In this document: positions 3,671 through 34,204 of the stretch, one piece after another
Layout of the letters: each line of letters starts with the position of its first letter
Numbering within the stretch: the first letter of the stretch is position 1
From: a virus
Reading direction: 5' to 3' (one strand)
Virus record (IMG/VR): IMGVR_UViG_3300020438_000001
Span: 1-64,000 of that record
DNA length: 64,000 nucleotides
Translations under genes and position numbers: made by a program
Notes under the pieces: generated by a model
What the model was told of the DNA's origin: nothing
Databases searched by the model: none
Seen by the model: the letters and a program-made list of their open reading frames with translations, nothing else

Positions 3671-3672
3671 TT

Positions 3673-3867: not shown

Positions 3868-3873
3868 TTTTCT

Positions 3874-3881
3874 TATATTTG
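3874..3881 (+). promoter_or_regulatory. Candidate Bacteroidota-type -7 promoter box (TAnnTTTG)
   Basis: TATATTTG lies 21 nt upstream of the ATG at 3903. The TTG 'start' at 3879 in the ORF track falls inside this box. Confidence 0.35.
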
Positions 3882-3902
3882 TTAACTTTTAAAAGCCTGC
3901 CT

Positions 3903-10679: not shown

Positions 10680-10687
10680 TTAATTAA
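10671..10687 (+). repeat. 17-nt AGTAATTAATTAATTAA motif, copy 2
   Basis: Identical to 6540-6556. Confidence 0.8.
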
Positions 10688-10695
10688 TATATTTG
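10688..10695 (+). promoter_or_regulatory. Candidate TAnnTTTG -7 box
   Basis: TATATTTG ends 5 nt before the ATG at 10701. No clear -33 TTG partner was seen. Confidence 0.25.
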
Positions 10696-10700
10696 CAAAT

Positions 10701-14217: not shown

Positions 14218-17200
14218 CTATTTTAAATCAAACCAGCTAAGCTTATCTTCAGGTTTCGTGTACCATTCCTTACCTGGTAAGATGTTATGGAATCGTTTTA
14301 ATATTTTTGGATCATCTTTCTTATACCTTCCTGCATCTCTTTTATATCTTTCGTAGTCTCCTCCAGTCATTAATGATGATCCGTCACTCATTAACTGACT
14401 AATAAATTTCCAATATGCTTCAATAGTAGTCATGTTTGCTGCAGGTGTTCTTAATATCTCAAAGAATGATGAGGTAGTATAGAAGCCCATTTCAGCTTGT
14501 ACTCTTTTAACGTTGTAGAGCATCTGCCAATCAAGCGCGGTCATATTTGCCGATCCGTCTTCGTCGTCTGGGTCATATCCAAATCCTAGTGAACTTCCTA
14601 ATAGTGTTAGCATAAAGTATCCTACACTTTCACCTAAAGCTCTTCTAATATTCTGTTGCTCAAACTCTTCTAATTTTTTCCACTGCTGTGGTAGAGTTTG
14701 GAATCGCATAGCCATCACTTCTTTCTTTATTCTATTCATAAACTTAAGCGCCGTAACATAATTACCTTCAGTAAATGATTGTAGTCTTTCATTATATTCA
14801 GGCCCTCTAAACTTAGAGTCTTTATTATAAAATAATTTCTCTGCGCCTTGGAATCTACGAAGCATTCCTGGACGTAACCACTTACGGAACTGCATTGCCC
14901 ATCTACCCACTGCATATTGTTGTAAAGCATTTCTGTCTTTAGTATTATATATACCATGGATACGTTGATAAGCCGCAGCTGCTCTTTCAGCAAATAATAT
15001 TCTATCTGTATCACTAAACTGCTCTGCCACTTCAGAATCTAATTCAAGACGACCATCTACTACTGAATATGCATCATATAAATTTACTTCACCTTTAGAT
15101 GTTTTAAATTTAGTATTCAACATCTGAGCAACAGCCATTTGGCTTTGTATTGCATGCTCTCCTAATGACATCATAAAGAATAATGCTGAAGCATTAGTTC
15201 TTAAGCCTAGTTTTCTATGCTCTAATCTATTTCCATATTCATCAAAATGTTGTTGGAAATCAAATAATTCATTTATCATTCCTAATTTCGAACTAGGTTG
15301 TCTAGACATTACATCTTTAGTTAACCCTCCAATACTTGCTGCATAAATCCCAGTAGCTTTTAAGTAATTTCCTACACCGTAGTGCTGATTAGCATACCCT
15401 TCAATAAAACTCATCATTTCACCGAACGTTGCATTAGATAAACCGGCGTGTTTATTCAGTGCCAAGACACGGAAACTTCCTGCCTGTAAGAATGCATCTA
15501 GAGATTGTGCTATATCTATCTCTTTACCCATAATAGTTACTGCTCCCATATCTTTTTTACGTTTACCGTATACTTGCATATCAAAGTAGTCACTTAATCT
15601 AGCATAAGCTCTTGAGTCTTCTCCGGCTACAGTAATATCTTTTCCTATCTGATCTTTCTTAGCTATACCAGATGATAGCTTAGTAACTCTTCTTGTTTTT
15701 ATTAGCTCTTTACCTACTTCAAGTACATCAAGTATCTCTGACATTTCTTTAAAGTTGTTTGCCATAGTAAAGAACATTTTTAAACCAGAACCTAGATCAT
15801 ATGATAAGTCTTCTGGACTTAATTGTCCTTCTTGATTACCAATAGCTCGTGAATAATGTACAGGTACAAAATCTAATGGGTTACCCGCAGCATCTACATA
15901 CTCTCCATAAGAAACATTATCTTCATGTTTTGTAAATGTTTCAGTCCACATTTCTTTAGCTGCATCCTTTAACCTTGTAGGGAACTTTCCTTTTTTCTCT
16001 AAAACTTTCTCCGCAGCTGTAGCTCTTAATGATGGTAATTGAGCTCCTTTTCTATATTGAGTTGGTAAGAGTTTTTGAGCATACATGTAATTTTCTACAT
16101 AGAATTCATAAAACACCCTTCTCGGATCTTCCTTACTCATGTTTGCTATATCTTTAAACTTCTGACTCTGATAATCTTTTGCTTGATTTTCTCTGTAAAA
16201 CTCTTGCCATTCTTCTTTGCTATTACTAAAGTTTTCACTATCCATAAACTCTTGCTTTAACTCTCTCCATCTAACTTCTTGCGCTGTAACAACGTTTCCT
16301 GTATAATTTCCATCAGTGTCTTGTTCTAACATAAAGTCATAAACTTCTCTGTTATTATATAAGTTTACACCATTATCAAACTGATACTTTTCAAGATCCT
16401 TCATAATTTTCATAAGACTTTTCGTAGTCTTAGTACCATACATTAATTCCTGAGTGGCCTGATTTACTTTACCTCTTTGTAATACAATAAGTTTATCCAT
16501 TGTAGCTAGCTCAGTTTGCGTTGAATCTCCTAAAGAGTCTAACCATCTAGCCATAAATGTTATATCTCGACCTGCAGTTAATAATTCTGCTTCTAATTTC
16601 TCTACAGTTACATTAGGATTAGTACTTAATTTAGCTAAAGCTTCTGCTATTAAAGGTCTTCCAAGGGCTTTATACTCTTCATATACTAAATTTTTCTTTG
16701 CAATAGCAGGCATTACATATTTCTCGATCATATTTTCGAAACCAGACTCTACTAACATAGGAGCCATCAATGTAATTTCTTCTAGACTATCATAAGATTT
16801 TACAAACTGATATATTTGATTTAAATTCTTTGGAGTAACTGCATTGTTTCTTACTAGCTCTTTTAATCTACCATGTGCAGCATTTATATCTCTTATTGCA
16901 CGTTTAGTAAATGTAATCAATCCTTCCTTTTCCCCTATTTCATCTAATTCATTATATAACTCTTGTAATTTATCTGAATATTCTTTATTATTAGATTTTT
17001 TATAGAAATCAATCTTTCTTAATATTTGATTTTTAGCGTTTTCAAATACACGGGCTACTGCGTCTTGTTCTTTTTCTATCTTTTTATTTGCCGCATCAAA
17101 CTCAGGGGATATATAACTAATAGCGCTTTTAATTACTTTCTTGCTAATAGGTTTCATATTGTTTAACTTATTTATCACCGGAGTGTTAGAAGTTGCAAGC

Positions 17201-20200
17201 CCAATATTATCAAATGTTATATTTCCATCTATATCCATAGTTACATCTGCTTCTAATGGTACTATATTTATTTCATCTATTGTAATTCCTTTTTCTTCTA
17301 TTATATGTTTATAGAAAGAGAGTTGTAATCTATATTTATTAAGTAAAGTATTAGGTATAGATGCAAGAGCTCCTTTAAATGCAGGTAAAGATTGTTCTAT
17401 ATTTCCAAATTTACCTCTCATTTTTGTTTTAAAGTCATGTATAATTTTTCTACCAGTAGGAGTAATCTCAATAATATCTACTGAACCTGCTAATAGATCT
17501 GATTTATCTGCTACTTTAACTTCTGAGTATAATGTACTTCCATCATTTATCTTAGCTTCTACCCATGCTTTTAAATTAGGTAACGCTTTTTTAAATGCTC
17601 CTCGGTGCTCTTCAGGAACCGCAGCTAAAGCAACTTCATCTGTTTGTTGTTGTACAAGCTGTTCCATTACGTTATGCAAACCAGTTCCCATGTCATCTCT
17701 TAAGAAATCCCACAACTTCTGTACTTTATTTGCCGTGTTAAACACATTACCTTCTTTTCTATTATTAGCTGCTACTTTCTCTGCCATTTCTTGTTGATTA
17801 AATGGATCCTGGAATATCTCAAGTAATCTACTTACTCTGTTCATTTTTACACCGTCTTGAACATAATAGTTATCCTGCTCAGTAGGCGCCATAATCATGT
17901 TACTTTCCCCAATAAGCTGATTCATAGCATCTTTTTGTGAGTAGTTTTTTAAATAAGGTATTTTAGAAGCAGCTAATGCCGTACCTCTTTTAAGTAACTG
18001 CGCTGCTAATCCTGTAATGTTCTGAGTTTGTAATGCATAGTATTTATTTATACCGATGTTTTCTATGCTAAGTCCTCCCGGATTTACACCAGATGTTATT
18101 GCTACTGCTGCAGGTCCTAATACTTCAGATAATTGTGCAGATAAATCATTAGCAGCTGTATTGCCTCCTCTAAAGAAACGTTTAATAGATTCCCATAAGT
18201 TTCTAAGTGTATTCATTAATCCAGATCCACGTACAAACTCAGGTTCTATTCCTAACTCTTGTCCTACAATATATCTACTAAGAACTTTCCCGGCGGCTTC
18301 TTTAATGAACTGCTCGTCTGTAGTATACACTCCCTCATATTCTTTTAGTACATCTTGATAAAGTTTTGTTTGGCTAACTAAATCAAATAGCCTCGTCTTA
18401 AGCGGGCTCTGATCCATCATCTCTATGTAGAAATGGCCTGCTTCTTCTGGTAATGTATACCTATCTCTGCTATTTTGTATTTGTACAACTTTATTTGCCA
18501 TGTCTGCAACACCTATAGCATCAAGGCCTAATTTTTCTTTAAGATTATCATATTTTTCTACTGGTATATTAAAGTGTTCTAATAACCAAGTTTCTAATCT
18601 AGCATCTAAATCTGCTAATATACTTTCTTTAACCACTGGAGATAGTTGCGGCATAATATCATTAATACTTGAAGTACTTCCAGGGTTCTCTTCTTCTGTA
18701 ATATCAGTAATTGTAGGATTAAGTTGTTTCGATGGAGCTGGGTTAAGTACTTTATTTCTTGGATGTACACTCTCTAACATTAAAGTCTCTCCTGCCATTT
18801 CTACATATTTAAACCTTTCACCTAAAGGTTGTATCTCTTCATATATAGCTCCTGTTTTAGAATCTCTTACATGCTTATATAATCTAAACTTTCCTTCATT
18901 AAAAGATTTAAAGTATGATACATATTCATCTACTAGAGGATCCACTGAAGGAACTACTAGATTATTATTAGCATCTTCATGTACAAAGTATTCATTTTGA
19001 GTCATATTTAATGACTTTCTCATATTATCACTAGTTGATAAATTTTTACTGTCTACAGTTTTTAATAAATTACGGTCTGTAAACATGTTTCTTATAATCT
19101 GTTCCGCGGCACCTTCATCAAAATAATTAGCATACCCCATACCTCTTTCTTCTTTTCTAAAGAAGTCTGTTAGTCCTGAAGCACTCCAGTATGACATAGG
19201 TACTAAATCTACAAATGAGTTAGGTCCTAACATAAATCCTGATGTAAGTACAGAGTATCGAACTAAGTCTTGAGCTAAGTTTCTTACTTCTGCTCTTGGG
19301 TCCATAAGTAATTCAGCCCATCTATCTGTTATTTTATTCTTTTGGGCTGGGCTTAATTTTGTTGTATTATTAAATGCTATAGTTTGTAAAAATTGAGCTC
19401 TTCCAGTATTCTCTGCAGAGTTATATAACATACCTAAGAATGGATCATTCTGTAGATTGTACTTCTTTTTGATTCTAATTACATCATTAAGAAGAGATGT
19501 AGGTTTGTTAAACAACTTCTTCTGCAATGCATCTCTTTTATTATATAATAAATCTCCAAATGGTGATGTACGTTTAGTTAATGAATAAAATAATCCAAAA
19601 CTATTTATCACATCAGACAAGTCTGGCGTCATTATACCATCTCTTTGCCCTGTTAATTGTGCAATATTTGTTTTTAATAAGCTAAACCCGGGCCCATTGA
19701 ATGGTACAAACTGTCCTGTAAATTGTTCAGCTGCTTTTATTCCATAATTTATGTATGCATCTATCCTATCAGTAGAGTTTCCAATATTAATAGCTGAAGA
19801 TTCACTGTTTAAATATGTTACAGTATTATTAAACTGTTCTAAAAAGCTAAGCCTACTAAAGTTTTTCAGTGTTTCTGGACTCACAATCATGTTAAACTTC
19901 GATAAATCTCTACCCGCTTGTAAGTATCTTAACATGTCATATAGAATCTGTGTCTGTCTTTTAGCTAATTCTTTATCTGCTAACGTTCCTCCTAAATCCT
20001 TTTTCAAAGAAGCTGCGCTAGGTGTATGTATTGTTTGCTCTCTAAGTAATTCAAATGTATCCAACATCTCATACTTCTTAGCTATATCTTTTGCAATAGC
20101 ATAGTCTGTCTTTTCTTCTTGTAAATTTCTTTCTGCAAAAAATTCTCTTAGTATAGGCTGATTAATAAAATCTAACGCTACACCTTCATTACTAAATCCT

Positions 20201-23200
20201 ATTCTATTTAATAAAGATACAACTCCATTATTATAAACAGTTACTCCGGCTCTACCAATTCTTTGATACTTAGCATTATCTAATGCTTCGTTTTGGTTTT
20301 CAGAAATATAACTTGATATAAATTGTCCATTAAATCCTAGTACTCTACTTAAATTTGTGTGTGACCTCGACCCCTCAGCCTGAATATTAACAGCAAAATC
20401 ATCTTTTAATTTTACATCCATGTCTTGTGCTACTGCGTGACCTGTAGAATGTAATGAAAATAATCCAATCAGTAAAGCCGCATCTTTGTTAATCTTTTCT
20501 AAGTACATGTCAGCAGCTGTAGAGTTGATATTAAGATCAGATAAGTTAGGTACAATTCCTAATTTCTCATACTCTGCTAGTTTTAATGTATATGTATTAC
20601 TATCTAGTGGATCCATTAACTCCTTAACGTGATGCTTAGATGTAATAATAGATTGTCTTATATCGAACAATGCATTTGTTAATGCTTTATCAGATACTCC
20701 AGTAAAATCTTTTTTCGTTTCATATATATCTGCATTAAATGCACTAATCTTTGTTTTAGCTTTAGATATTTCTGGGAACATAAGATACATTTTATCAATA
20801 TCAAAGTCACTACCCATCATTGTAGTTATTTCAGCCGGTAATATAATTACACCTCCCATGTTTTCTGGTAAAACTTTAGTAATCTTAAGAGATAACATAG
20901 AGTTTTTACCCTGTGTAGGAATACGGTAGCCCATAATCTCAAATAATTGCTGGTCTACATTAGAGTCTACAGTATCTCCTGGCTTTAATCCAAGCTTAGC
21001 TGCTAACTCATAAGGTAATGCTACTTCAGCATACACTCCTCCATTAGCATGTTGTCGTATTTCAAGTTGAGAATCTAGTTCGTATCCAAATTCAGCTACC
21101 TGAACCACACTCATACCATTAAATCTTTGCTTAAGAACTCTATTCTTAAATAGGGATAGTAAAATACTTTCAAACCTTTTTGCAAATGGCGGGAAAGATA
21201 GTGGCGCTTCAAATCCATAAGCGTTAACATCGTCTACTAGCTTTTCTATTTTCATAGCTAAGTAATAGTTGTCTGGTAAATCTCTTTCTTCTAGGCTATT
21301 AATAGCTACATCTTTAACTTTTAATAAGAAATCTAATTGAGCTTTATTTCTAGTTTCTAGGTCTGTTGATTGTATAGCCTGCTGATAAGAATCCCATCCA
21401 AGTTCATTGGTTAATGCATCATGAGACCTTTTTATACGCTCTGCATATATTTCATTATATAGATCTTTTATTTGCTTACCATTATACTTACCTCCAAATA
21501 CATTATAATTATAACTATCTAAAATATTTGATAGTATTAGTTTTGCCATCTGTGTTCCGTCTAATGGTGCTTTTGTTTTTGTTTCTATTACTTGAGGAGA
21601 TCTTAAATTTTTAGTTTCTAATATCTCTACATTTAATCCTTCTAGATTAGAAATATTTTCTATACCTGATGCTCCTACTTTAAGGGCAGACTCAAAGTTT
21701 GCCATATCAATAGGTTGTAACCCTTTATATTTACCGACTGCTTCCATACGTTGTCTTAGATTATTTAAGGATACTTGTTCTTCAGTACCTTTAAACATTT
21801 CAGTAAACTCTCTTATTAAAGGAATCGTCGAATGCTTTATTTGTTCAAACGTTATAGTTTGATTGCCCTGAGAATCTGTTATAAGTCTTTCTCCAAAGTA
21901 ATATGTCTTTCTAGGATTTAATAATAATTTTTTAGATGCTGGGTCTCCCATTAATCCTTTTACCCAATATTTATTATACGCATCAGTATGCTCATCAGTC
22001 CAGGTTCCATCTGACTCCATTAAATTTTTATGGAATTCTAAAGTAGTAAACCCTTGTGCATCAGTCTTGTTAATTTTTGTATATGCATTAGCAATTCTTT
22101 TTGCTTCCTTTGTTTCTGTGCCTGCATTTTCTAATATTTTTTGGAACCTTGCTGTATCACCATCTTTAAATATATCTTCTAAAATAGTGTGAGTGAATTT
22201 AGGCTTAAGTCCATACTGCTTCTGCTCATTCCATACCGGCTCAAGTCCAGGAGTAATTGATTGATAAGCTCTTTTTCCTGCTTCTATAATTGGATTACCT
22301 GTGTCATCAGTTTTATAGTATGCTAAATCAGGACCAAATGTAGTTTGCATATAAGTTTTATATACTAAATCATTAACCGCAAATCTAGTTATAGCTGTAG
22401 TTATATCATTGTTTATTATATCTCCACGTAATGCAGACATAGGCAAAGACTCATTAGTTATAGAAGATCCAGTTACATTAATTGCTCCTGCTTCTGCAAA
22501 TGCTGTTATAGTTTGCTGAACATTATCTTGTAAGTACTTTAATAACCCTTCTTTTAATCCAACTCTAAGCTCTTCAATCTGAGCCATACTAGAAGCATTA
22601 ACACCTTTTCTTATAAGCCCTCCTTGATTAAATATTTTATACTTAGGGTCATTTAGTTGTGGGAATTGTATAAATCTAGTTCCATTACCTTGTTGGTCTC
22701 CTGGTTTATTTTTATAGTGTACATTCTGTCTTTGTTCTGATAATGCAATAGGATTAAATCCTGATAATTGATCATTAGTCTTAGCTATTCTAGCCATTTC
22801 ACCAAGGGCTGCAGGCATTAATAGTTCAACTCCAGTTTCATACCAACCATCTAGTCCAGTCTTACCGGATTTCCATAAACCTAATGCAGCATTTTCAGGC
22901 CCTATCTTTGGTAAGCTTAAGAATTTCCATTGTGTTTTATCTCCTTTAGTACCTGTATTAAATTCTCCATACTTAAATCCATTATTATAGAACATTGCAA
23001 ATCTAGATATTGCAGATAGTTTCTGATTCATAGTATCATATGCATTAGATCTACTAGCTGCATTCTTTTCTTTAACAACATCAAATGTACTTAAGGCAAA
23101 ATTAGCTCTTACTTCAGGATTATTAAATAATAAATCTAAGATTAAATGTCTGTATTTTTCTGTAGGACTATAGAACACATCATTATATCTCGATAAAATA

Positions 23201-26200
23201 GCAGCTTCATAAGTTTCTTCCGAGCTTAGTTCTAATGTAGTCTTAGAATCATATGTATTTAAATTAATTGCATAGATAGGTTTTTTGTTACCGCTCATAA
23301 ATGATGCGATGTAATTGTCTATAGTATAATCTACAGCAAGTTCTGCTAGATTTTTAAGCGCTGCAGACTCCATATTACCAGCCATATATGGGCTTATCCC
23401 ACTTTCTAATGCTCTTAGTATTCCGGCTCCGAATGAATTAGTACCTCTCATGTACTGTTCTAGGTCTATTGCTCTTACCGTTTCATCATTATAAATACCT
23501 TCCCATACTACATTATCGAATTTAATACCTACCATATCTAGGGTATCCTTCATGATTCTTAAGTACTGCCCTTTATGTTCTTGGTTTGTAAGATCTCCCT
23601 GGTTTTTTAATAAAGGTAATAGTTTATCATAAGATTGTCTTATTTTTTCTACTTCAGTTAAATCTATTAAATCATTTTCTCCATTTTCTTCTTGGAATAC
23701 TGGACTTTCTAATCTATTAGAATTCCATATATTAATAATTTGATTCTTTAATCCATTTCTATTTGTAAGGATTGTTCTAGTTTCTCCGTTCTCATCTAGT
23801 AATAGAGTTTTAAACTGGATATTTTGTTTATTGAAATGCGCAACAAATTTATTCTGCCATTGTGGAGATGATGCTGCGTATACTGTTAATACTTCACTAG
23901 CCATAGGGTGGCCTTTTTCTGCTAGCTTTTCTAATCTATTTAATACATTACCGCCAGGTGTATTAGCTAACGCTACAGACAGATATGCATACACCTCATC
24001 AAATGGTAAATATCTATTAGACCCTAAAAACTTTCCTTTTTCGGATTTAATAAAACCTAATTCAATTTTAATATCTTTAGATAATGTAGGCTTAGTTGAG
24101 CTATGATAATAATTAACTCCATGTATACGCTCTTTACTTTGCTCTTCATTTAAAGCTACTTGTTCATCTAAAGATACATCATCATTAGCTTCAATCTCAG
24201 TAGTTGTTTCTTCTACAAACGGAACAGTCTCTGTATCAATTTTACCATCTCGCTTTATTTTATACTTTATACCAAATTGATTGTCTAATGCTTTAACTGC
24301 TAAGCTTTCAAACCCGGGGCTAACTAAATTATCTAAATCATCTGTTCTATCTTTCCAGTTATTTTCTTGGGCTACTAACATAAAGTTATTACCTATTTTT
24401 CTAAGTGTCTCATTCTCAGATTGTTGTAATCTTTCTCCTGTTTCTATAAAACCTTGTTGTAACTTAGAGTAAGTAGATTTCATAAGTTTAGGGTCTTTCA
24501 TTACCTCTAACCACTTATCTCCATACTCTTCTTGTAATTTATTTTTTAGATTATAGTTCATAACCCCTACAATTTCATCAACTTGTTCTACTGTAAATCC
24601 AGTTTTCTCACGGAGTAAAGGTGCTTGTACTTGAGACTGTAATGCTGCATCTTCTTGAGGTAATATAAAATCTCTGTTAGTAATATCTCTAAACAAAGTT
24701 TCTATTGCAGAACTCATTCCTAACATATTCTTTATGTAATAAAGTAGTTCTTTAAAGAATTTTTTAATTGTAGAACCTAATCCTGACTCGTCTTCTGTAA
24801 GCCTATAGTTCATAAACTCTTCAGCTAAACGAGTTTCAATATCCGCTTCTTGTCCGTATTTATTTATAGCCTCCATCTCTATAGAAGTTTTTTCTTCAGG
24901 TGTTAGATGTAGATCATATATACGACGGAAAGCTTCCCAATACATAGTTCCTGTAGGAGCATTCTCTGCAACAGTAACCATGCCTCTATGATAATAACCA
25001 AAAGCTTGTCTACCATCTTTTAATGTTATATATTTTAATCTGTTTAGAACAGTAAGACCCTCTTCTCCAAATCTAGATAGAAACCACTGCTTTTCTATAT
25101 CGCTTATTAAATCAACAGCTCCTTCTAAATCTTCATATTTTCTAAACTTTATATCTATATCTTCATCAAGTTTATTTGGATCAATCTCTTCTATTGTATC
25201 AGTTGTAGTATCAGTAATCTCTGTACTACTTTCGTCTCCAAACACATCAGTAACTCTTTGTACTTCAGGCTCGTCTACAAGTATATCAACATTTTGACCT
25301 AACACTTCTCGAGCTTCTTCTTGCTCTGCTTCTATAATAATTTCCGGTGTACCTATAACTTCTACACCTTCATTTATAAAGTCTGGCATTTGATTTTTAA
25401 CTGGAGTTCCTTCTTCTATATATATCTTAGCATGATGAAACTTCTGAGAACTTCCTCCTGGAACATCAGTTGTAACAATACCCATTTCAGATAAATAAGT
25501 ATTATAATCTTTAAAAGATTCATTTTGTAGTGGACTAAAATATTCTTGCTTAGAATTAATTAAATGTTTTTGAACATTAAATACTTTTGTTGCTAAGTAA
25601 TCTCTAATGATTGTTGGGATCTGACCGAACTGAGAAATGTCTTCGCTTCTTCTAAGCTCATGAGATATTACATTTCCTTGAGAATCATATTCTTTAAATA
25701 AGAAAGGCTTACCATCCATAGCATCTTGGAAATTATTTCTCATCTTATCTCCAAGACCCTCCATATTATACTGTATACCAATTACTCTATTTGTTCCTGG
25801 AATAGGTATTTTAACTACTAGATTATCCATAGCTAATATACGTTTACTATTGGCCTGTTTAAATGTTTGATCTTGTCTAGCTCCTACTGGAGTATATACA
25901 ATTTTATTTACTAACTCTCTTTTCTCTTTAGGAGCTACTCCTTGCATTTTAATAATCTCTATTACTTTATCTATAGCTTTTTCTGTAAGTAATGAAGTCT
26001 CTGCTCTTACTGGAACCATTTGTCCGTTAGCAGACTCTAACGCTATATAGACTCTTCCTTGCTCAATATAAGATGTAGGAGAAACACTTACATCACTGTT
26101 ATTATATCTAACAGTTTGATCTTGCCCTACACCTATAATCATGTCACCGCTAATAGGACGTTGTATAGATTTACCATCTTTTTTAATATTAATTACATAC

Positions 26201-29200
26201 CCAGAAGTCTTTCCTGCTATCGTAGCTGTAACATCTTTAGTTCCCATTGCAGCAATCCTTGTTCTAAATGCACGGCTTTGTGCAGTTTTTTTACTTAGAA
26301 CAGATAAAACTTTACTCGGGTCAGATGCTAATCTTACAGTAACTACCACATCGCCTGATTGGCTAGATGGATAGTATTTATATTCTGGTTCAATTCGTAA
26401 GATGACTTTTGTACCTACTCCTAAATCTGGACTATTTAATAGTTTAAAATCAAATAAATCTTTTTCTTTTACGGCATCAGGAACTACTATTAATACTTGT
26501 TGCTCTCCTTTAACTTGTTTCTTTTGGTAATCCCATCCTTGCCAAGGTGCCATTTTACTTTCTTCTACTATTCTTCCTCCTTCGTAAATAGGTTTATCGT
26601 TTACTAATAATGGCGGATTATAATATACAAGTTGTACTCTATCATTACTTTCATCTTCTAATTGCTGCAACTCAGTTGGAGTAAGTTCTGTAATATCTTT
26701 AAAATAAAAACCTCCTTTCTTTCCCGGTGCAGTCCACATTGGTATAAGCATACCATCTTTATCTTTAGCCTGAGTAAATTTACCATTAGGCCCTACTACA
26801 CTTATTACTTGTGGTTGAAAGAATTCAAGGTAAGCTTTTTGTAAAGCAGGTTGAGTCTGTGTAGTAGCTCCAGGTACAGTAACTATAGATCCCTCTTCTT
26901 CTTTGACTGTTTTTCCTGATTGCGGATCCTCAGTAGCTTCGATAATAGCATTTTGCTCTTCGATAGCAGAGACCGCATCTGGGTTTTCGACTGTTGGTAT
27001 TTCTCCTTCATTAGTTATTTCTTCGATTTGACCCTGATTAACTTCTATTGATTCTCCGAGGACATCAATAAGCTCTCCTTGTTCTGTTATTTCTAACTTT
27101 GATTGGGAGGCGTTTGGCCCGGCTTCGCTCGTTCTATTTTCTGCATTGAGTTCAGCGGTAATCCTTTCCTCAGTTTTCGCAGGGTCTTCACTCTGCTCCA
27201 CTTGTCCTTCGCTAAAAGCGTTTTCTGTAAGTCTAGGGGCAGCAGCCGGTTTAGTTGAGTTAGCTTCATTGTATTTATTTTTAATATTATTAATTGTTTC
27301 TTGTATAGCATTTGATAACTGTATATTAGCTTGTCTTCTTACAGCTACAGACTCCGTCCCTTCTACAAGGGCTCCATCAATATCTTTAACAACTAAAGAG
27401 CCATCAAACAGATCTGTCTCATAAGTGACTATATATTCGTTACCGTTTTGTTCTATTATTAAGAAATCATTATTAACTAGATTTCTAAACGCAGTTCTTT
27501 TAACCGCTTCTAAGGTTTCAATAACATCTGCAATCTCATAAGTAACCAAAGGATTTGTAAATGTAACTTTTTTACCATTCCATTTAGTTAATGTAACTGA
27601 TACAACACTACCACTTGCGTCATATTCAATAGCATCTACTGGATTATCTGATAGATTATTAAAGTATTCATTATTAATGTTGAATGTTTTACCATCTGCA
27701 TTTATTTCTATGCCTAGTAAATCATCTCTTCTAAGTAACATATCTAGAGACCCTAATGTAGGCCCCTGTGTAAATTGCCCTAAAGCATTTCTATATCTTG
27801 AATCATGAGCTGATGGACTTTCATCTACAATATATTCTGTAAGAGTAGTTCCATCTCGGAATATTAGTTCATTTGTTTCAGCATCTCTATAAATAGATCC
27901 AACTTTATTCCCCCAAACAACTCCTACAGTTTGTATTACTTCATCAAACAATTCAGAGATAGGCATGTTAATACTCTCAGCATCACCATAAAGATAAGCA
28001 GTACTTCTTCCTTGAGTCTCTCTCCACTCCTGTTCCATCTTAGCACGCTTTGCCGCATCTCTTCTGCTAAGTTTTGGATTAAAAAGTTCTTTCTTAAGCT
28101 CTTCTATTTTACGGCCTATCTCATCATTAATCTCTTTTCTAGCTTGCTCTGCTAAGTTTTTTAAATTAGTTTTATTTTCTTCATAGGATTTTTGAATTGA
28201 TTGTTCTTCTTTAGCGTTTCTAAAAGCCTCTATAAATTCATTATAAAATTCTTGTATTTTTATATTGTCTGGATACTGAGCAAAAAATTCTGTAACTTGC
28301 TCTTCAGTCATTTCAGGATTCTTTTTTACAGCCTCCTTAAAATCCTCTATAATACCATTGTTTTCAGCTTCTTCTTTAATACGTTCTTTACCTACTACTG
28401 CTATATCGCCTAATGCTTCTGCTTCTGAACTATTAGAATAATAAGGATTCTCCTCTTTTAATAAATCTTGTAATCTATTCCAAGCTGCATCTCTATTCCA
28501 AGTAAATAATTGCTTTTTATTTTGCAGTGTAACAAGACTACCTTTATCAACTTTACTTAAGAAGTCATTCTCTGCTCTTAGGTCTTTATCTTCATATGTC
28601 TCTTCAGAAGCTTTCTTTAATACATTTTCTTCTGTTTCATTTCTAGCAATTAGATCCTGTAAGTTATTTATATATTGATTAAAGTTTTCTGCTAATGCTT
28701 TAGACTTTTCTTTCTCTTCTTTTGTTGCGGTTGTATCGTTTGCTACATCTTCTGCTCTTTCTTTTGCAAGCTCAAATTTACTAAGCTGATCTTGTAATGA
28801 TCTTTTCTTTAATTGCAGTTCATGTCTTTGTTTTGTATTAGGCCCAATATTATATTGCTCAACATTATAAATATCATCATTAATATTTTGTTCTATCTGT
28901 TGATCTATTTCTTTAATGAGCTTATCATACATAGTAACACTCATATCTAACTCTGTAAGAGCTCCCGCAACACCTGCTCCCCATTTAGAACTTGTTGCTC
29001 TATTTCTATAATTATTAAATTTCTTTTCAGTAGTTCTTAAGATGTTTATTAAATCTGCTTTTCTTGTAGCTAATTCAGACTCAGATTGTCCTGTTTCTTT
29101 TAGCATATCAGTAAATGCGGGATCATTCATCATCTCTTCTAGCTGATCCATATTTCCGGCTTGTGCTGAATTAAGCGCTAGCTGTAATGCCATAAGCTCA

Positions 29201-30780
29201 TCTTGCTCTCTTGCTCCTTGTACGTCACCATTTTCTATAGCCTTTCTTCTTTTTTCTAAAGATTTTTGTATAAGATCGGCTCTTCCTCCTATCTCTTTCA
29301 GTCTAGCCTGATCTAAAGCTGCTTGAGCTTTTCTATTTTTTATTGTTGCTACACCACTAAAAATACCCCCTCCTATAGTACCCATTGTAGTAGCCGCCCA
29401 AAAATCTCCTCTAGATGCATAATCATTCATACGATTAACCCAGCTTGACCCAGACATAAACTCTCTGTTTTCATAGCCAGTATTACCCATCATTATATCT
29501 CCAAGGCGTATACCTTCTTGCATACTCATAAAGTTAATCTGCTCTTCTATACCTTCTGAGTAAGCCCATAATGCTGGAGGTATAACAGGTTTAATATAAT
29601 TGTAAGCTTTGCCTATTCTTGTCTTAGGAACTTTAGGCGCTTTAAGTGTAGCATTTTGAGCTTTTTGTACTTTAGTTGAATGTCTACCAAATATGTTTGC
29701 TCCTGGACGAGTACTAAATTTCATTGGACCAAACCATAATCCTGCTTGAAGTATATCAAATCCAACATTACTCCAGTTTAGACTATAAGAATTAGATGCA
29801 GCCTGTCCTGCAACATGATTTGCTATTTTATCTTTTGCATAAGGATCGCCAGCTTTAATACCTAACTCTTTTAAAATAGCTTCACCATTTGAAGAGTTTA
29901 TAAAATTATCAAAATTCTTAGGATCTTGTAAGTAGTCCAAATTCTTTTGGAATGAATGATCCCATGTTTCTCCAGCCTCTCTAAAGTTTTCCATATGCCT
30001 CATAGAAATACCCATAGCCATAGAGTTTCTTACGAAGTTAGTAGCTCTACCAGCAGTCAATGCTCCTTGTAGTTTACGTGAAGCATTTGCTACCATCGCA
30101 CTTCTAGAACCTTTACCCGCTCCTGCTAAATATCTCATCCCTCTACCCATATAAGCAGCTCCTCTAGCTGCAACCATACCCGGAATAAGTAAGGATAGTG
30201 TAGATGCAACAGACACTCCATTTGATGCCCACCATCCTGAATCATAAGGGTCCCATCCTCTACCTGGATTTTCCTGGTATATAGGTGTAAACTCTTTTGT
30301 AGCTTCTCTTATATCTCCACCTAAATCAGTTAACCAATTTTGAAAGTCACTTTCCCAAGGCATTTTACCCATAAACATACCACCAATAGCATCTCCTAAT
30401 GCGCCAAAACCTTCTAATGTTCCACCTCCAACCTCACCTATAATAGCTTGATTTAAAAATCCTCCAAGCTGTTGCATACCTGATTGTTCGCTGGCTCTTC
30501 TACTATTTATATTATGTATATTTTCTATATCCCAATTAACATCAGGCATAGCATTATAGTCCGCCTCAAATACAGTAGGTGTTTGAAACCTTTGATTTGA
30601 GTTTGCTTGCGTATATCTAATAACATCTAATGAGTTTTCAATATCTAAAGGATACTGTACAGCATCTTCATTGCTTGGTAATTGTGGACCGCTTTCATCT
30701 TGTGGTAAAGCAGTAATTGGATTTAATGTAGTATTCATCTTTGCTATATCCAAAGATGAGCCTTTTTTAGGTTCTCCCAT
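14218..30780 (-). CDS. Giant (5520 aa) putative virion-delivered polyvalent protein containing a beta-prime-like RNAP barrel and a RecB-like nuclease
   Basis: Uninterrupted 16.5-kb ORF. It has a Gly-rich hydrophobic N-terminal region, a long charged helical region, acidic linkers, the RNAP DPBB motifs (aa 3211-3337) and PD-(D/E)XK motifs (aa 4303-4495). Confidence 0.85.
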   Translation of the reverse strand: MGEPKKGSSLDIAKMNTTLNPITALPQDESGPQLPSNEDAVQYPLDIENSLDVIRYTQANSNQRFQTPTVFEADYNAMPDVNWDIENIHNINSRRASEQSGMQQLGGFLNQAIIGEVGGGTLEGFGALGDAIGGMFMGKMPWESDFQNWLTDLGGDIREATKEFTPIYQENPGRGWDPYDSGWWASNGVSVASTLSLLIPGMVAARGAAYMGRGMRYLAGAGKGSRSAMVANASRKLQGALTAGRATNFVRNSMAMGISMRHMENFREAGETWDHSFQKNLDYLQDPKNFDNFINSSNGEAILKELGIKAGDPYAKDKIANHVAGQAASNSYSLNWSNVGFDILQAGLWFGPMKFSTRPGANIFGRHSTKVQKAQNATLKAPKVPKTRIGKAYNYIKPVIPPALWAYSEGIEEQINFMSMQEGIRLGDIMMGNTGYENREFMSGSSWVNRMNDYASRGDFWAATTMGTIGGGIFSGVATIKNRKAQAALDQARLKEIGGRADLIQKSLEKRRKAIENGDVQGAREQDELMALQLALNSAQAGNMDQLEEMMNDPAFTDMLKETGQSESELATRKADLINILRTTEKKFNNYRNRATSSKWGAGVAGALTELDMSVTMYDKLIKEIDQQIEQNINDDIYNVEQYNIGPNTKQRHELQLKKRSLQDQLSKFELAKERAEDVANDTTATKEEKEKSKALAENFNQYINNLQDLIARNETEENVLKKASEETYEDKDLRAENDFLSKVDKGSLVTLQNKKQLFTWNRDAAWNRLQDLLKEENPYYSNSSEAEALGDIAVVGKERIKEEAENNGIIEDFKEAVKKNPEMTEEQVTEFFAQYPDNIKIQEFYNEFIEAFRNAKEEQSIQKSYEENKTNLKNLAEQARKEINDEIGRKIEELKKELFNPKLSRRDAAKRAKMEQEWRETQGRSTAYLYGDAESINMPISELFDEVIQTVGVVWGNKVGSIYRDAETNELIFRDGTTLTEYIVDESPSAHDSRYRNALGQFTQGPTLGSLDMLLRRDDLLGIEINADGKTFNINNEYFNNLSDNPVDAIEYDASGSVVSVTLTKWNGKKVTFTNPLVTYEIADVIETLEAVKRTAFRNLVNNDFLIIEQNGNEYIVTYETDLFDGSLVVKDIDGALVEGTESVAVRRQANIQLSNAIQETINNIKNKYNEANSTKPAAAPRLTENAFSEGQVEQSEDPAKTEERITAELNAENRTSEAGPNASQSKLEITEQGELIDVLGESIEVNQGQIEEITNEGEIPTVENPDAVSAIEEQNAIIEATEDPQSGKTVKEEEGSIVTVPGATTQTQPALQKAYLEFFQPQVISVVGPNGKFTQAKDKDGMLIPMWTAPGKKGGFYFKDITELTPTELQQLEDESNDRVQLVYYNPPLLVNDKPIYEGGRIVEESKMAPWQGWDYQKKQVKGEQQVLIVVPDAVKEKDLFDFKLLNSPDLGVGTKVILRIEPEYKYYPSSQSGDVVVTVRLASDPSKVLSVLSKKTAQSRAFRTRIAAMGTKDVTATIAGKTSGYVINIKKDGKSIQRPISGDMIIGVGQDQTVRYNNSDVSVSPTSYIEQGRVYIALESANGQMVPVRAETSLLTEKAIDKVIEIIKMQGVAPKEKRELVNKIVYTPVGARQDQTFKQANSKRILAMDNLVVKIPIPGTNRVIGIQYNMEGLGDKMRNNFQDAMDGKPFLFKEYDSQGNVISHELRRSEDISQFGQIPTIIRDYLATKVFNVQKHLINSKQEYFSPLQNESFKDYNTYLSEMGIVTTDVPGGSSQKFHHAKIYIEEGTPVKNQMPDFINEGVEVIGTPEIIIEAEQEEAREVLGQNVDILVDEPEVQRVTDVFGDESSTEITDTTTDTIEEIDPNKLDEDIDIKFRKYEDLEGAVDLISDIEKQWFLSRFGEEGLTVLNRLKYITLKDGRQAFGYYHRGMVTVAENAPTGTMYWEAFRRIYDLHLTPEEKTSIEMEAINKYGQEADIETRLAEEFMNYRLTEDESGLGSTIKKFFKELLYYIKNMLGMSSAIETLFRDITNRDFILPQEDAALQSQVQAPLLREKTGFTVEQVDEIVGVMNYNLKNKLQEEYGDKWLEVMKDPKLMKSTYSKLQQGFIETGERLQQSENETLRKIGNNFMLVAQENNWKDRTDDLDNLVSPGFESLAVKALDNQFGIKYKIKRDGKIDTETVPFVEETTTEIEANDDVSLDEQVALNEEQSKERIHGVNYYHSSTKPTLSKDIKIELGFIKSEKGKFLGSNRYLPFDEVYAYLSVALANTPGGNVLNRLEKLAEKGHPMASEVLTVYAASSPQWQNKFVAHFNKQNIQFKTLLLDENGETRTILTNRNGLKNQIINIWNSNRLESPVFQEENGENDLIDLTEVEKIRQSYDKLLPLLKNQGDLTNQEHKGQYLRIMKDTLDMVGIKFDNVVWEGIYNDETVRAIDLEQYMRGTNSFGAGILRALESGISPYMAGNMESAALKNLAELAVDYTIDNYIASFMSGNKKPIYAINLNTYDSKTTLELSSEETYEAAILSRYNDVFYSPTEKYRHLILDLLFNNPEVRANFALSTFDVVKEKNAASRSNAYDTMNQKLSAISRFAMFYNNGFKYGEFNTGTKGDKTQWKFLSLPKIGPENAALGLWKSGKTGLDGWYETGVELLMPAALGEMARIAKTNDQLSGFNPIALSEQRQNVHYKNKPGDQQGNGTRFIQFPQLNDPKYKIFNQGGLIRKGVNASSMAQIEELRVGLKEGLLKYLQDNVQQTITAFAEAGAINVTGSSITNESLPMSALRGDIINNDITTAITRFAVNDLVYKTYMQTTFGPDLAYYKTDDTGNPIIEAGKRAYQSITPGLEPVWNEQKQYGLKPKFTHTILEDIFKDGDTARFQKILENAGTETKEAKRIANAYTKINKTDAQGFTTLEFHKNLMESDGTWTDEHTDAYNKYWVKGLMGDPASKKLLLNPRKTYYFGERLITDSQGNQTITFEQIKHSTIPLIREFTEMFKGTEEQVSLNNLRQRMEAVGKYKGLQPIDMANFESALKVGASGIENISNLEGLNVEILETKNLRSPQVIETKTKAPLDGTQMAKLILSNILDSYNYNVFGGKYNGKQIKDLYNEIYAERIKRSHDALTNELGWDSYQQAIQSTDLETRNKAQLDFLLKVKDVAINSLEERDLPDNYYLAMKIEKLVDDVNAYGFEAPLSFPPFAKRFESILLSLFKNRVLKQRFNGMSVVQVAEFGYELDSQLEIRQHANGGVYAEVALPYELAAKLGLKPGDTVDSNVDQQLFEIMGYRIPTQGKNSMLSLKITKVLPENMGGVIILPAEITTMMGSDFDIDKMYLMFPEISKAKTKISAFNADIYETKKDFTGVSDKALTNALFDIRQSIITSKHHVKELMDPLDSNTYTLKLAEYEKLGIVPNLSDLNINSTAADMYLEKINKDAALLIGLFSLHSTGHAVAQDMDVKLKDDFAVNIQAEGSRSHTNLSRVLGFNGQFISSYISENQNEALDNAKYQRIGRAGVTVYNNGVVSLLNRIGFSNEGVALDFINQPILREFFAERNLQEEKTDYAIAKDIAKKYEMLDTFELLREQTIHTPSAASLKKDLGGTLADKELAKRQTQILYDMLRYLQAGRDLSKFNMIVSPETLKNFSRLSFLEQFNNTVTYLNSESSAINIGNSTDRIDAYINYGIKAAEQFTGQFVPFNGPGFSLLKTNIAQLTGQRDGIMTPDLSDVINSFGLFYSLTKRTSPFGDLLYNKRDALQKKLFNKPTSLLNDVIRIKKKYNLQNDPFLGMLYNSAENTGRAQFLQTIAFNNTTKLSPAQKNKITDRWAELLMDPRAEVRNLAQDLVRYSVLTSGFMLGPNSFVDLVPMSYWSASGLTDFFRKEERGMGYANYFDEGAAEQIIRNMFTDRNLLKTVDSKNLSTSDNMRKSLNMTQNEYFVHEDANNNLVVPSVDPLVDEYVSYFKSFNEGKFRLYKHVRDSKTGAIYEEIQPLGERFKYVEMAGETLMLESVHPRNKVLNPAPSKQLNPTITDITEEENPGSTSSINDIMPQLSPVVKESILADLDARLETWLLEHFNIPVEKYDNLKEKLGLDAIGVADMANKVVQIQNSRDRYTLPEEAGHFYIEMMDQSPLKTRLFDLVSQTKLYQDVLKEYEGVYTTDEQFIKEAAGKVLSRYIVGQELGIEPEFVRGSGLMNTLRNLWESIKRFFRGGNTAANDLSAQLSEVLGPAAVAITSGVNPGGLSIENIGINKYYALQTQNITGLAAQLLKRGTALAASKIPYLKNYSQKDAMNQLIGESNMIMAPTEQDNYYVQDGVKMNRVSRLLEIFQDPFNQQEMAEKVAANNRKEGNVFNTANKVQKLWDFLRDDMGTGLHNVMEQLVQQQTDEVALAAVPEEHRGAFKKALPNLKAWVEAKINDGSTLYSEVKVADKSDLLAGSVDIIEITPTGRKIIHDFKTKMRGKFGNIEQSLPAFKGALASIPNTLLNKYRLQLSFYKHIIEEKGITIDEINIVPLEADVTMDIDGNITFDNIGLATSNTPVINKLNNMKPISKKVIKSAISYISPEFDAANKKIEKEQDAVARVFENAKNQILRKIDFYKKSNNKEYSDKLQELYNELDEIGEKEGLITFTKRAIRDINAAHGRLKELVRNNAVTPKNLNQIYQFVKSYDSLEEITLMAPMLVESGFENMIEKYVMPAIAKKNLVYEEYKALGRPLIAEALAKLSTNPNVTVEKLEAELLTAGRDITFMARWLDSLGDSTQTELATMDKLIVLQRGKVNQATQELMYGTKTTKSLMKIMKDLEKYQFDNGVNLYNNREVYDFMLEQDTDGNYTGNVVTAQEVRWRELKQEFMDSENFSNSKEEWQEFYRENQAKDYQSQKFKDIANMSKEDPRRVFYEFYVENYMYAQKLLPTQYRKGAQLPSLRATAAEKVLEKKGKFPTRLKDAAKEMWTETFTKHEDNVSYGEYVDAAGNPLDFVPVHYSRAIGNQEGQLSPEDLSYDLGSGLKMFFTMANNFKEMSEILDVLEVGKELIKTRRVTKLSSGIAKKDQIGKDITVAGEDSRAYARLSDYFDMQVYGKRKKDMGAVTIMGKEIDIAQSLDAFLQAGSFRVLALNKHAGLSNATFGEMMSFIEGYANQHYGVGNYLKATGIYAASIGGLTKDVMSRQPSSKLGMINELFDFQQHFDEYGNRLEHRKLGLRTNASALFFMMSLGEHAIQSQMAVAQMLNTKFKTSKGEVNLYDAYSVVDGRLELDSEVAEQFSDTDRILFAERAAAAYQRIHGIYNTKDRNALQQYAVGRWAMQFRKWLRPGMLRRFQGAEKLFYNKDSKFRGPEYNERLQSFTEGNYVTALKFMNRIKKEVMAMRFQTLPQQWKKLEEFEQQNIRRALGESVGYFMLTLLGSSLGFGYDPDDEDGSANMTALDWQMLYNVKRVQAEMGFYTTSSFFEILRTPAANMTTIEAYWKFISQLMSDGSSLMTGGDYERYKRDAGRYKKDDPKILKRFHNILPGKEWYTKPEDKLSWFDLK
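17290..17875 (-). other. RecB-family PD-(D/E)XK nuclease domain inside the 5520-aa ORF (aa about 4303-4495)
   Basis: MGTGLHNVMEQL, AGSVDIIEI (Asp 4435, nt 17476-17478), IIHDFKTK (D-x-K at aa 4449-4451, nt 17428-17436) and RLQLSFYKH (QxxxY). Confidence 0.7.
20770..21150 (-). other. Beta-prime-type double-psi beta-barrel (RNAP catalytic) segment inside the 5520-aa ORF (aa 3211-3337)
   Basis: FKNRVLKQRFNGMSVVQV, then VALPYELAAKLGL, then YRIPTQGKNSML, then MMGSDFDIDKMYLMFPE. These are collinear with E. coli beta-prime GKRVDYSGRSVI, GLPKKMALELF, NRAPTLHRLG and NADFDGDQMAVHVPL. DFDID is encoded at nt 20794-20808. Confidence 0.75.
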
Positions 30781-33800: not shown

Positions 33801-34204
33801 TCACCGGTTTCTTTAGCTTTAGCAATTTTTTTCTGCAACCTTTCAGTCTCCTTAGTAGAAGATTTAATAATACCTAAGTTGCCTTGTAATATTTCTAGCT
33901 CAGTTCTATTCTTGATTTTCTTTAATACTGGTGTCATATCAGCATATCTACCTTCATGTTTATCGTATAGATCACTAAGCTCAGTTGTTAATCCCTGTCT
34001 GTACTGAGTTAAATATTCCGCATGCTCAGGACTAGACGCCTTAATCTTTAAGATCTCATCATCCAATGACTCGGCTAATGCCTCTGCATCATTATGTTCT
34101 TTTTGTTTAGTAGCATAAGCTAAAGACATCTCCTTAAACGGGAGAGGTACATGGGTATTTATTAGTGGCTGTTCAGCCGGTTTCATGAATCTATTTACTG
34201 CCAT
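30809..34204 (-). CDS. Large (1131 aa) virion/ejection protein with a C-terminal LAS-type (M15/VanY-like) peptidoglycan peptidase
   Basis: GGFHVMGQAIDLS matches HxxGxAxD (His1009, Asp1016) and DEEWWHWS (His1114) matches the ExxH-type second motif of LAS metallopeptidases. The N-terminal two thirds have no recognisable motif. Confidence 0.75.
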   Translation of the reverse strand: MAVNRFMKPAEQPLINTHVPLPFKEMSLAYATKQKEHNDAEALAESLDDEILKIKASSPEHAEYLTQYRQGLTTELSDLYDKHEGRYADMTPVLKKIKNRTELEILQGNLGIIKSSTKETERLQKKIAKAKETGDYDDDFNPVLATEGNWQGWYRTGTDGQNEDLSWNLTDDSRGIYGTEGRLKPFKYTGLHPKVDELAEANENIFKYVKPDIDKIIQENARTGAKVTKEQKSITLSKLYQAAHQNKQYLSDGFKNELDYVVKYRMDDEMVLGAATNAIDNMFGSEEDIRGMYGNNPNEDQQEAINSRLAQRNEAISSLNDDNGLTGSAYDLAKTNYVGAMGEKFLMSDVFDSLTWDQSVLEKNKNKGRAPKTDWVPVIVGSTPVVSYAKPHKVDDPSTPIQTGGQPIQDFNSLVVDRKKTYEATLNEYELLKEQGTMDEEMHRAKQDEIARAKYQYEAAAFSQKNLIQETANGMQMRRIGGPPGFPDLIEYVDGNGQKKTVQIGSPRYTNRGYNLVEFDDKGFPVNMGDWDGQKSLTTQHLGYDYSEGFISYLNNPEGDLFNAMKSNVENFGTEGWYGGRSAKLPTWNTTLSKSLDADVTKAMQSNFIKDDFLFTNSEGQEVSLNTLMENEIIKDEVVEEYIIDDELPIVWTTVPDPSTGNYKGMISIPTDGADAENTTMTLYFDAPTELKQSWLSLTEDYDEEGLKYTRATTPTEKMVFNNNFAAQMDIQSAATINGNVAPSMYRDGDGRMLGMYYFNQTPEGTPIVNSEFLFRPQAGLVAAINPDGSYEYTTGQELFPTDIEASQLSQLIALNSPQFSGSLEFWKNHMSENKPTGNYPIAVQNAPVTETSEAREIDITGMPYSTKLSPGQTSYSGDRIEKNMLFGTTNHGLLGTNIKFANQVMTAELDYSSKSRDTLEMVADKLGEEYKDTPVILSDGTETTVQAAIVSGDITLNWVNGNGMYNGAAIPINNSNRTYQEQLNKYTAWVDGGRKGDPIANPNVGGFHVMGQAIDLSQTKGDYDLILTTSENIASVGSNSVTTIGTKNTGEGKTGTQRGVRISELKSNGSLLFENFLKNQLTSVYNSLSSPRNTGIRGEDLQPIRQFDEEWWHWSAGEFRTETPAVYPSW
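30812..31327 (-). other. LAS/M15 zinc peptidase domain (aa about 960-1131 of the 1131-aa ORF)
   Basis: H-x6-D at nt 31157-31180 and WHW at nt 30860-30868. Confidence 0.65.

Follow-up and report, generated by a model that had tools for sequence, protein, structure and literature searches.

The stretch of viral DNA analysed here, positions 1 to 64,000 of IMG/VR record IMGVR_UViG_3300020438_000001 (the window), contains on its minus strand one uninterrupted open reading frame (ORF) of 16,563 nucleotides (nt; 14218..30780) encoding a single protein of 5520 amino acids (aa). We wanted to know what this protein, which we will call the giant, is. It has a mass of 623.4 kDa and an isoelectric point of 5.2, and it lacks cysteine altogether. 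An earlier note, made from the sequence without database searches, had reported this single ORF just as we find it, and had read the product as a polyvalent-type protein that is packaged and injected. That type of reading stands; the note did not recognize, however, that the protein belongs to a known class, the virion RNA polymerase polyproteins of the Crassvirales. Very probably, the giant is such a polyprotein, with three cargo proteins fused into one chain, from a crAss-like phage that is divergent and probably marine. By homology, and using the gene names of crAss001, its chain consists of a gp47-like, a gp50-like and a gp49-like module. Polyproteins of this class have already been published, and the giant adds another member: triple fusions of the polymerase-associated modules and the PDDEXK domain in these proteins were reported before for crAss-like phages, and a published review gives a length of up to ~6000 aa for the hallmark crAss-like polymerase gene. 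What may go beyond the prior literature is the clade-wide loss of both zincin sites, an insertion hot-spot for a GNAT domain in one linker, and a cysteine-free signature like that of the T7 and N4 ejection proteins.

The giant ORF starts with ATG, immediately preceded by a TAA codon, and 5520 stop-free codons would be expected by chance with P ~10^-212, given the composition of the coding strand (33% G+C). Using the first 5000 residues as query, we detected 18 full-length relatives of 5520-5935 aa with 38-99% identity, in assemblies from ENA, JGI, MGnify, NCBI, Tara and Logan; several of them are located on contigs of 86-90 kb, and the Tara and JGI relatives hint at a marine lineage, whose hosts are likely marine Flavobacteriia. 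The 18 relatives aligned end to end, each block of 50 residues having a mean identity of 0.3-0.8 with the query, and all of them (18/18) retain the triple-module fusion. A syntenic JGI contig also carries the giant as one gene, flanked by the same neighbours. When three tiles of the giant were compared with phage genomes by tblastn, matches were obtained in crAss-like phages only, at 22-30% identity, and megablast found no match to the ORF in 50,697 phage records. Scans of six tiles against Pfam, PHROGs and NCBIfam yielded sub-threshold or single matches only (RNA_pol_Rpb1_2, PDDEXK_1, phrog_16227, phrog_298 and a weak Tim17 match at aa 458-503), a PDB sequence search with the N-terminal half found nothing, and the giant contains no CxxC or HxxEH motif. 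All features of the giant described below lie on the minus strand.

The RNA polymerase module (aa ~2231-4050, approximate bounds; 18631..24090) is homologous to gp66 of phage phi14:2, gp50 of crAss001 and gp44 of p-crAssphage. Using phmmer, aa 2703-3354 were aligned with residues 774-1404 of phi14:2 gp66 (PDB 6VR4; E = 2e-22), with the sequence GSDFDIDKMY identical in both proteins, and a weaker collinear alignment continues to gp66 residue 2043. The aligned span includes the connector, which corresponds to residues 1095-1238 in the published structural work on gp66, and the barrel carrying the catalytic DFDID motif (aa 3325-3329; nt 20794-20808). DFDxD is conserved in 17 of the 18 orthologs, the remaining one having DYDID. 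The crAss001 gp50 and p-crAssphage gp44 proteins match the same region, and Pfam RNA_pol_Rpb1_2 matches it below threshold. The module is thus predicted to contain two double-psi beta-barrel folds, and the RNA polymerase barrel that the earlier note had proposed is there with its catalytic motif intact. Phage phi14:2 gp66 was shown to be a virion RNA polymerase; early genes are transcribed by it when rifampicin is present, and in vitro it transcribes single-stranded or denatured DNA. Early transcription is the main role demonstrated for this family, whereas disarming of the host, which the earlier note also considered, would be a hypothetical one. According to the record annotation, the products of phi14:2 g065-g067 were identified as virion proteins by mass spectrometry. 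For crAss001, mass spectrometry found gp45, gp46, gp47, gp49 and gp50 in virions. A 166-aa ORF (18500-19000, plus strand) runs antisense to the giant across the boundary of the polymerase module and the zincin-like domain Z2 (see below), and is most likely a chance ORF.

Upstream of the polymerase, the giant contains a conserved domain at aa 73-650 (28831..30564), the N-domain, which was detected by tblastn and profile hidden Markov model (HMM) searches and is predicted by AlphaFold2 to be all-helical. The tblastn searches gave matches to crAss002 and to the N-terminus of p-crAssphage gp45, a protein annotated as 'RNAP associated protein fused to zincin protease', and the HMM of the N-domain matched gp45 residues 62-642 with E = 8e-83. 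The N-domain is present in nearly all distant giant relatives. It contains an SMRHMEN motif (aa 259-265) and three glycine-rich hydrophobic helices, at aa 118-138, 183-205 and 465-480; the earlier note had placed two such segments exactly at the first and last of these positions. In an alignment with ~38 relatives, all three segments are kept across distant crAss-like phages and are among the best conserved parts. The AlphaFold2 model, based on a 21-sequence alignment, consists of helices of 35-60 residues with the glycine-rich stretches inside them (mean predicted local distance difference test score, pLDDT, 74). Searching the BFVD database with this model using Foldseek returned crAss-like proteins and structural proteins of the Cellulophaga phages phi14:2 and phi4:1 (E-values from 6e-4 to 9e-25), while the alignment profile of the N-domain gave nothing meaningful against the PDB.

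A highly charged region follows, and overlaps the end of the N-domain (aa 480-940; 27961..29343). Windows in which at least 40% of the residues are D, E, K or R cover aa 481-530, 641-760, 771-820 and 841-940. The earlier note had described a charged helical stretch of about 450 aa here: the charge is evident from the composition, and long helices are present in the AlphaFold2 model up to aa 660, where the model ends, whereas the part beyond that point would be helical by extension. The two acidic linkers that had been noticed correspond to aa 1191-1300 (26881..27210; 26% D/E, sequence poorly conserved) and aa 1791-1910 (25051..25410; 84-449 aa long among the orthologs), and we added a third acidic stretch at aa 2181-2230 (24091..24240), defined by composition and comparison of the orthologs, which likely marks the junction of the N-module and the RNA polymerase. 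In most orthologs these stretches contain 21-30% D/E although their sequences are not kept; where linker 2 has long insertions, its acidic content falls to 15-20% over the longer stretch. Between the N-domain and the polymerase, the blocks at aa 947-1100 and 1556-1773 are common to the giant and its distant relatives.

Downstream of the polymerase, the long C-terminal region pointed out in the earlier note proved to be a crAss001 gp49-like domain. By BLASTP, aa 4558-5479 match gp49 residues 367-1300 (26% identity, E = 2e-80), aa 4088-4255 match gp49 residues 213-377 (E = 1e-12), and aa 4914-5464 match phi14:2 gp65 (E = 2e-31). Accordingly, we delimit the C-terminal domain as aa 4559-5520 (14221..17106), homologous to gp49 residues 367-1300 and gp65 residues 790-1371. 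Between the two parts that match gp49, the giant contains ~300 extra residues (aa 4255-4558; 17107..18018), whereas in gp49 the flanking residues 377 and 367 are contiguous, so that this segment is an insertion in the C-module that is absent from crAss001 gp49. It corresponds to the RecB-like nuclease of the earlier note and is a predicted PD-(D/E)XK nuclease of the RecB/MGME1/EXO5/Cas4 type, with a match to phrog_298 'exonuclease' (E = 1e-15) and intact predicted catalytic motifs (GTGLH at aa 4365, E4420, D4435, DFK at aa 4450-4452 and QLSFY at aa 4486-4490) that are invariant in the 18 orthologs. The AlphaFold2 model has a pLDDT of 80-94 across the insert, and its best Foldseek hits in the PDB were EXO5, the AdnAB nuclease domains and MGME1 (probability 1.0, target TM-score ~0.5), as well as Cas4 SSO0001 and ACE1. 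Cas4 proper was rejected as an identity: there is no cysteine, and therefore no four-cysteine iron-sulphur cluster of the Cas4 type, and the domain resembles those members of the clade that have no cluster, MGME1 being an example.

A word-based search for homologues, run with the nuclease by itself, recovered four fragments only. An exhaustive profile search detected the domain in four settings, namely in the window's own clade of giants, in stand-alone C-modules of 1460-1760 aa, in other giant proteins at different positions, and in many small proteins of 215-300 aa. Several of the stand-alone C-modules (1618-1763 aa) contain an intact HExxH motif, then the nuclease, and then the C-domain. 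Profile searches of the PDB with the nuclease alignment and with one of the nuclease plus the preceding domain (Z2, see below) gave nothing meaningful.

Two zincin-like domains flank the polymerase. The first, Z1 (aa 1866-2068; 24577..25185), is homologous to the C-terminal zincin region of crAss001 gp47 (residues 2076-2220; E = 9e-38), and the second, Z2 (aa 4051-4225; 18106..18630), is homologous to crAss001 gp49 and phi14:2 gp65. Neither has kept the zincin motif. An alignment with 29 relatives that have HExxH shows that Z1 contains WEAFR (aa 1948-1952) in its place, the downstream LAEEF being retained; W-E-x-x-R is present in 18/18 orthologs, and WEAFR itself in 15/18. In Z2 the corresponding residues are EEAGH (aa 4112-4116), as compared to EEFAH in crAss001 gp49 and a retained HExxH in phi14:2 gp65. 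In fact, HExxH is absent throughout the giant and its 18 orthologs, whereas each reference phage has at least one (in crAss001 gp47, p-crAssphage gp45 and phi14:2 gp65), and distant relatives contain an HExxH ~1430-1590 residues before DFDxD and often a second one ~700-830 residues after it. Any cutting of the chain in this clade would therefore not be performed by a classical zincin of its own. The only HExxH (HELGH) encoded by the minus-strand virion genes of the window is in a cysteine-rich ORF of 3677 aa, and none is found in the cargo ORFs. The Z1 profile weakly recognizes the Z2 region (independent E-value 0.0014), and hence Z1 and Z2 may be ancient, distant paralogues.

Together with the two ORFs upstream of it, of 1131 and 1105 aa, the giant forms a series of three consecutive minus-strand ORFs (14218-37533) without a single cysteine in 7756 aa. 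Neighbouring ORFs contain 0.3-5% cysteine, and the replication genes in the window 0.3-2.7%; the exception nearby is a 194-aa ORF (13275-13859, plus strand), for which zero is unremarkable at such length. At the 1.35% cysteine of the other non-fibre ORFs, the probability of finding none in 7756 aa is ~10^-46, and the probability of a cysteine-free giant from nucleotide composition alone is ~10^-60; its two off-frames contain 74 and 268 TGY codons. None of the 18 orthologs (18/18) contains cysteine, and in distant relatives, which are 3100-6065 aa long, the number is 0-4. In phi14:2, crAss001 and p-crAssphage, we counted 0-3 cysteines per cargo or polymerase protein, compared with 10-22 in muzzle-type proteins, an exception being the 3857-aa part of p-crAssphage gp44 (8 cysteines, 0.2%). 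As a control we used phages whose ejected proteins have been defined experimentally. T7 gp15 (747 aa) and gp16 (1318 aa) and N4 gp50 (3500 aa), gp51 and gp52 all lack cysteine, whereas most other T7 and N4 proteins counted, polymerases included, contain 0.3-2.2%. By analogy, we infer that cysteine is avoided because these proteins must not form disulfides while they are in the virion or the periplasm and must pass the tail channel unfolded; the absence of cysteine would then independently mark the giant and the two upstream ORFs as ejected cargo. A literature search on cysteine avoidance in ejection proteins found no paper on it among those covered, although the observation may be published elsewhere.

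The genes upstream of the giant form a block that is also known from cultured crassviruses. The ORF at 37588..43095 (minus strand, 1835 aa) encodes the crassvirus muzzle protein (Pfam crAss_MUZ, E = 1e-145, crAss_MUZ_C and phrog_28748), with BLAST matches to phi14:2 gp71 and crAss001 gp44. Between it and the giant are the cysteine-free ORFs of 1105 aa (34216..37533, minus strand, with a glycine-rich N-terminus) and 1131 aa (30809..34204, minus strand), which by position would encode crassvirus cargo proteins. The resulting order, muzzle, 1105-aa cargo-like, 1131-aa cargo-like and giant, is the same as in the blocks phi14:2 g072 to g065, crAss001 gp43 to gp50 and p-crAssphage gp50 to gp44. A tail-collar-type protein is encoded further upstream, the genes for DnaB, rIIA, rIIB and an exonuclease are located on the opposite strand, and no tRNA genes were found within the 64-kb window.

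Several other genes in the window deserve mention. A conserved 120-aa ORF (13848-14210, minus strand), which is also present in the JGI contig, directly follows the giant and overlaps the end of the converging plus-strand gene at 13275-13859 by 12 nt, leaving therefore no intergenic room for a terminator; the point of convergence is also where the cumulative GC skew changes direction. The 3677-aa ORF mentioned above (48210-59243, minus strand) is a second giant with 4.4% cysteine (162 residues) and no PHROG match. It has a matrixin/reprolysin-type metallopeptidase match around HELGH at aa 2425, and probably encodes a tail or fibre protein on the outside of the virion that includes a protease domain. 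Three small ORFs of 219, 300 and 199 aa (59256-61432, minus strand) contain 4-5% cysteine, and the 300-aa one matches tail-collar, fibre and collagen-like tail families. Within the structural block, a 380-aa ORF (45002-46144, minus strand) matches phrog_704 'DNA repair exonuclease' (E = 2e-58) and, weakly at its N-terminus, helix-turn-helix/HNH-like families; phi14:2 has a metallophosphatase at a comparable place. In the replication block, rIIA-like (820 aa) and rIIB-like (336 aa) genes (8217-11711, plus strand) are followed by an exonuclease VIII/DUF3799-type gene (12284-13315).

Comparison of the relatives also revealed where additional domains are accommodated. In the orthologs P0004 and P0016, linker 2 contains a GNAT acetyltransferase domain that scores above the Pfam cut-offs (P0013 has a weaker match), at a position equivalent to aa 1791-1890 of the giant (nt ~25111-25410), which itself has no GNAT domain. 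Among the distant relatives, ART-PolyVal is found just after Z1, a PIF1/UvrD helicase shortly after the catalytic motif, and cpYpsA-SLOG plus RNase H, or NADAR, at the C-terminal end. Since these accessory enzymes sit at junctions or termini, the family would act as a cargo scaffold. The nuclease is the sole accessory enzyme of the giant. With a predicted polymerase, a predicted nuclease and two zincin-like domains in one chain encoded next to structural genes, the giant is a polyvalent protein as judged from its domain content. The idea of a packaged and injected multi-domain protein, put forward in the earlier note, is thus supported by the homology to virion proteins, the gene context, the absence of cysteine and the accessory domains. 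The statement that most of the ~5000 remaining residues had no recognizable motif holds in part: much of the chain is now assigned to modules, whereas the region of about aa 650-1860 still has no assigned function.

Some observations weigh against this interpretation. Besides that central region without an assigned function, the glycine-rich helices are moderately hydrophobic (maximum Kyte-Doolittle value 1.41), and a Foldseek search of the PDB with the N-domain model gave nothing better than E = 0.5, with non-specific helical or membrane proteins only. The Foldseek E-values of the nuclease are weak (3.5e-3 to 5e-2), though the hits all belong to one clade. BLAST comparison of the 1131- and 1105-aa ORFs with crAss001 gp45/gp46, phi14:2 gp68-70 and p-crAssphage gp46/gp47 gave no match, which is why their assigned cargo role rests on position and cysteine avoidance. 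For this clade, presence in the virion, ejection, membrane insertion and the polymerase and nuclease activities are all inferred. Finally, published opinion favours cleavage of the polyprotein, and the window comprises 64 kb of a genome of ~87-90 kb, so that a separate protease is possible.

Whether the chain is cut is the point on which the alternatives differ most. The giant could be a true polyprotein, translated as one chain with cleavage sites in or close to the acidic linkers and junctions, and yield at least three virion proteins that work as in crAss001 or phi14:2. We consider this a serious possibility, if somewhat short of probable: Drobysheva et al. deemed cleavage likely, the modules exist as individual proteins in other crassviruses, acidic stretches of low conservation and variable length lie at the junctions, and zincin-like domains flank the polymerase. 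Against it, HExxH is missing from both zincin-like domains in all 18 orthologs, no cargo ORF in the window has one either, and among the minus-strand virion genes HELGH is confined to the 3677-aa ORF; moreover, the virion RNA polymerase of N4 is packaged unprocessed despite its zincin domain. Fusions exist as N-module plus polymerase, as polymerase plus C-module and as all three, and therefore covalent linkage is tolerated. With the zincin catalytic sites gone and the N4 enzyme packaged uncleaved, we lean slightly towards the view that no protease of its own cuts the chain in this clade. An extension of that view, in which the uncut 623-kDa chain would be a tethered machine whose N-domain anchors in the envelope while the nuclease resects or nicks the entering DNA end and the polymerase starts on the exposed single strand, the kind of template that the crAss-type enzyme prefers in vitro, with cysteine avoidance as a general marker of ejection, appears unlikely to us.

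The remaining alternatives concern what the giant is and where it acts. That it is a tail-internal, tape-measure-like protein fused to a polymerase has a published precedent in Thermus phage P23-45, where a tape-measure protein is fused to a two-barrel virion RNA polymerase. The N-domain model shows a sub-threshold fold similarity to tape-measure proteins (E = 0.02-0.4), and part of one crAss001 cargo protein sits in the tail. Given that these fold matches are not significant, that the polymerase-associated proteins of crAss001 are assigned to the capsid cargo zone, and that the window encodes a muzzle protein, which is typical of the short crassvirus tail, we consider this reading very unlikely. 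It is most improbable, too, that the giant is not packaged and serves, within the infected cell, as a factory for transcription and the processing of DNA. Its predicted polymerase and nuclease could act in the cytoplasm, and its presence in virions is deduced from relatives, but its gene is located in the late structural block by the muzzle gene, its homologues are found in virions, and it avoids cysteine as completely as proven ejected proteins do, while replication genes do not. The earlier note had itself named an artefact joining several genes among what could overturn it. The homologous modules are indeed separate genes in cultured crassviruses; however, 18 independent assemblies drawn from six sources show the same uninterrupted architecture, at identities down to 38% and with conservation along the whole length, and the syntenic JGI contig has the same single gene. 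An origin of the giant ORF in assembly or sequencing errors is therefore a possibility that we regard as negligible.

For the preferred reading, a virion RNA polymerase polyprotein ejected as cargo, the following course of events can be proposed. Judging from its relatives, the giant would be made late and packed into the capsid; the polymerase-associated cargo proteins of crAss001 are assigned to a cargo zone there and are believed to leave through the tail in a partly unfolded state. At infection, the partly unfolded giant would be driven through the tail with its N-terminus leading, before or together with the DNA, and its lack of cysteine would keep it from forming disulfides in the virion or the periplasm. 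The glycine-rich helices of the N-domain, exiting first, might engage the cell envelope, by analogy with N4 and T7. The polymerase module would then, like its relatives, transcribe the early genes without the host RNA polymerase. The nuclease, more speculatively, may act on DNA ends, either of host DNA or of the incoming genome; since gp66 uses single-stranded or denatured DNA in vitro, the nuclease might prepare a single-stranded template, or else attack host DNA.

The giant leaves the basic published picture of the crassviruses unchanged. It does present the transcription block as a modular cargo scaffold, which in the new lineage carries the three polymerase-associated cargo proteins as one gene. 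The loss of both zincin sites weakens the case for zincin self-proteolysis as a universal activation step of crassvirus polymerases. If the cysteine rule is general, absence of cysteine would be a sequence-only marker of tail-ejected proteins in uncultured phage genomes.

Comparison with known systems places the giant among several types of virion-delivered proteins. Like the polyvalent proteins described by Iyer et al. (2017), it unites many domains that are unrelated to each other, among them zincin (MPTase)-type domains, in a chain that the virion would deliver, and its relatives carry ART-PolyVal and other conflict-type domains; it differs from them in that its zincin sites are degenerate and its dominant function would be transcription. 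That paper counts the virion RNA polymerase of N4, which has a zincin domain, among the polyvalent proteins and does not mention crAssphage. The giant resembles N4 gp50, a very large ejected polymerase, in its layout of an N-terminal domain, a polymerase, a zincin-type domain and a large helical domain, and N4 likewise encodes two further ejection proteins (gp51 and gp52) just upstream, all being cysteine-free. However, gp50 has 3500 aa, a T7-like single-subunit core and an HExxH, and there is no detectable sequence similarity between N4 and the giant; homology of the C-module to the C-terminal domain of the N4 enzyme was considered and dropped, having no sequence support.

The cultured crassviruses are much closer. 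In p-crAssphage (Carjivirus communis), gp45 has a homologous N-domain and a zincin region at its C-terminus, and gp44 already fuses the catalytic subunit to the C-module. Unlike the giant, these are two ORFs (1957 and 4070 aa) with 22-25% identity to it, gp45 keeps HExxH, and no PD-(D/E)XK match was seen in gp44. All three modules are homologous to crAss001 gp47, gp50 and gp49, which are, in contrast, encoded by separate genes, gp47 being on the opposite strand and having HExxH, while gp49 lacks the nuclease insert of ~300 aa. In phi14:2 the modules are also distributed over three genes, with ~25% identity only; its proteins have 1-2 cysteines each, and its gp65 has HExxH in Z2 and no nuclease insert. 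Nevertheless, phi14:2 shares with the giant a polymerase of the two-barrel type (predicted for the giant) with its DFDID motif, the placement after the muzzle and cargo genes, a marine Bacteroidota-type context, and the order of the modules, so that phi14:2 gp67-gp66-gp65 corresponds to the N-module, polymerase and C-module that in the window form a single chain.

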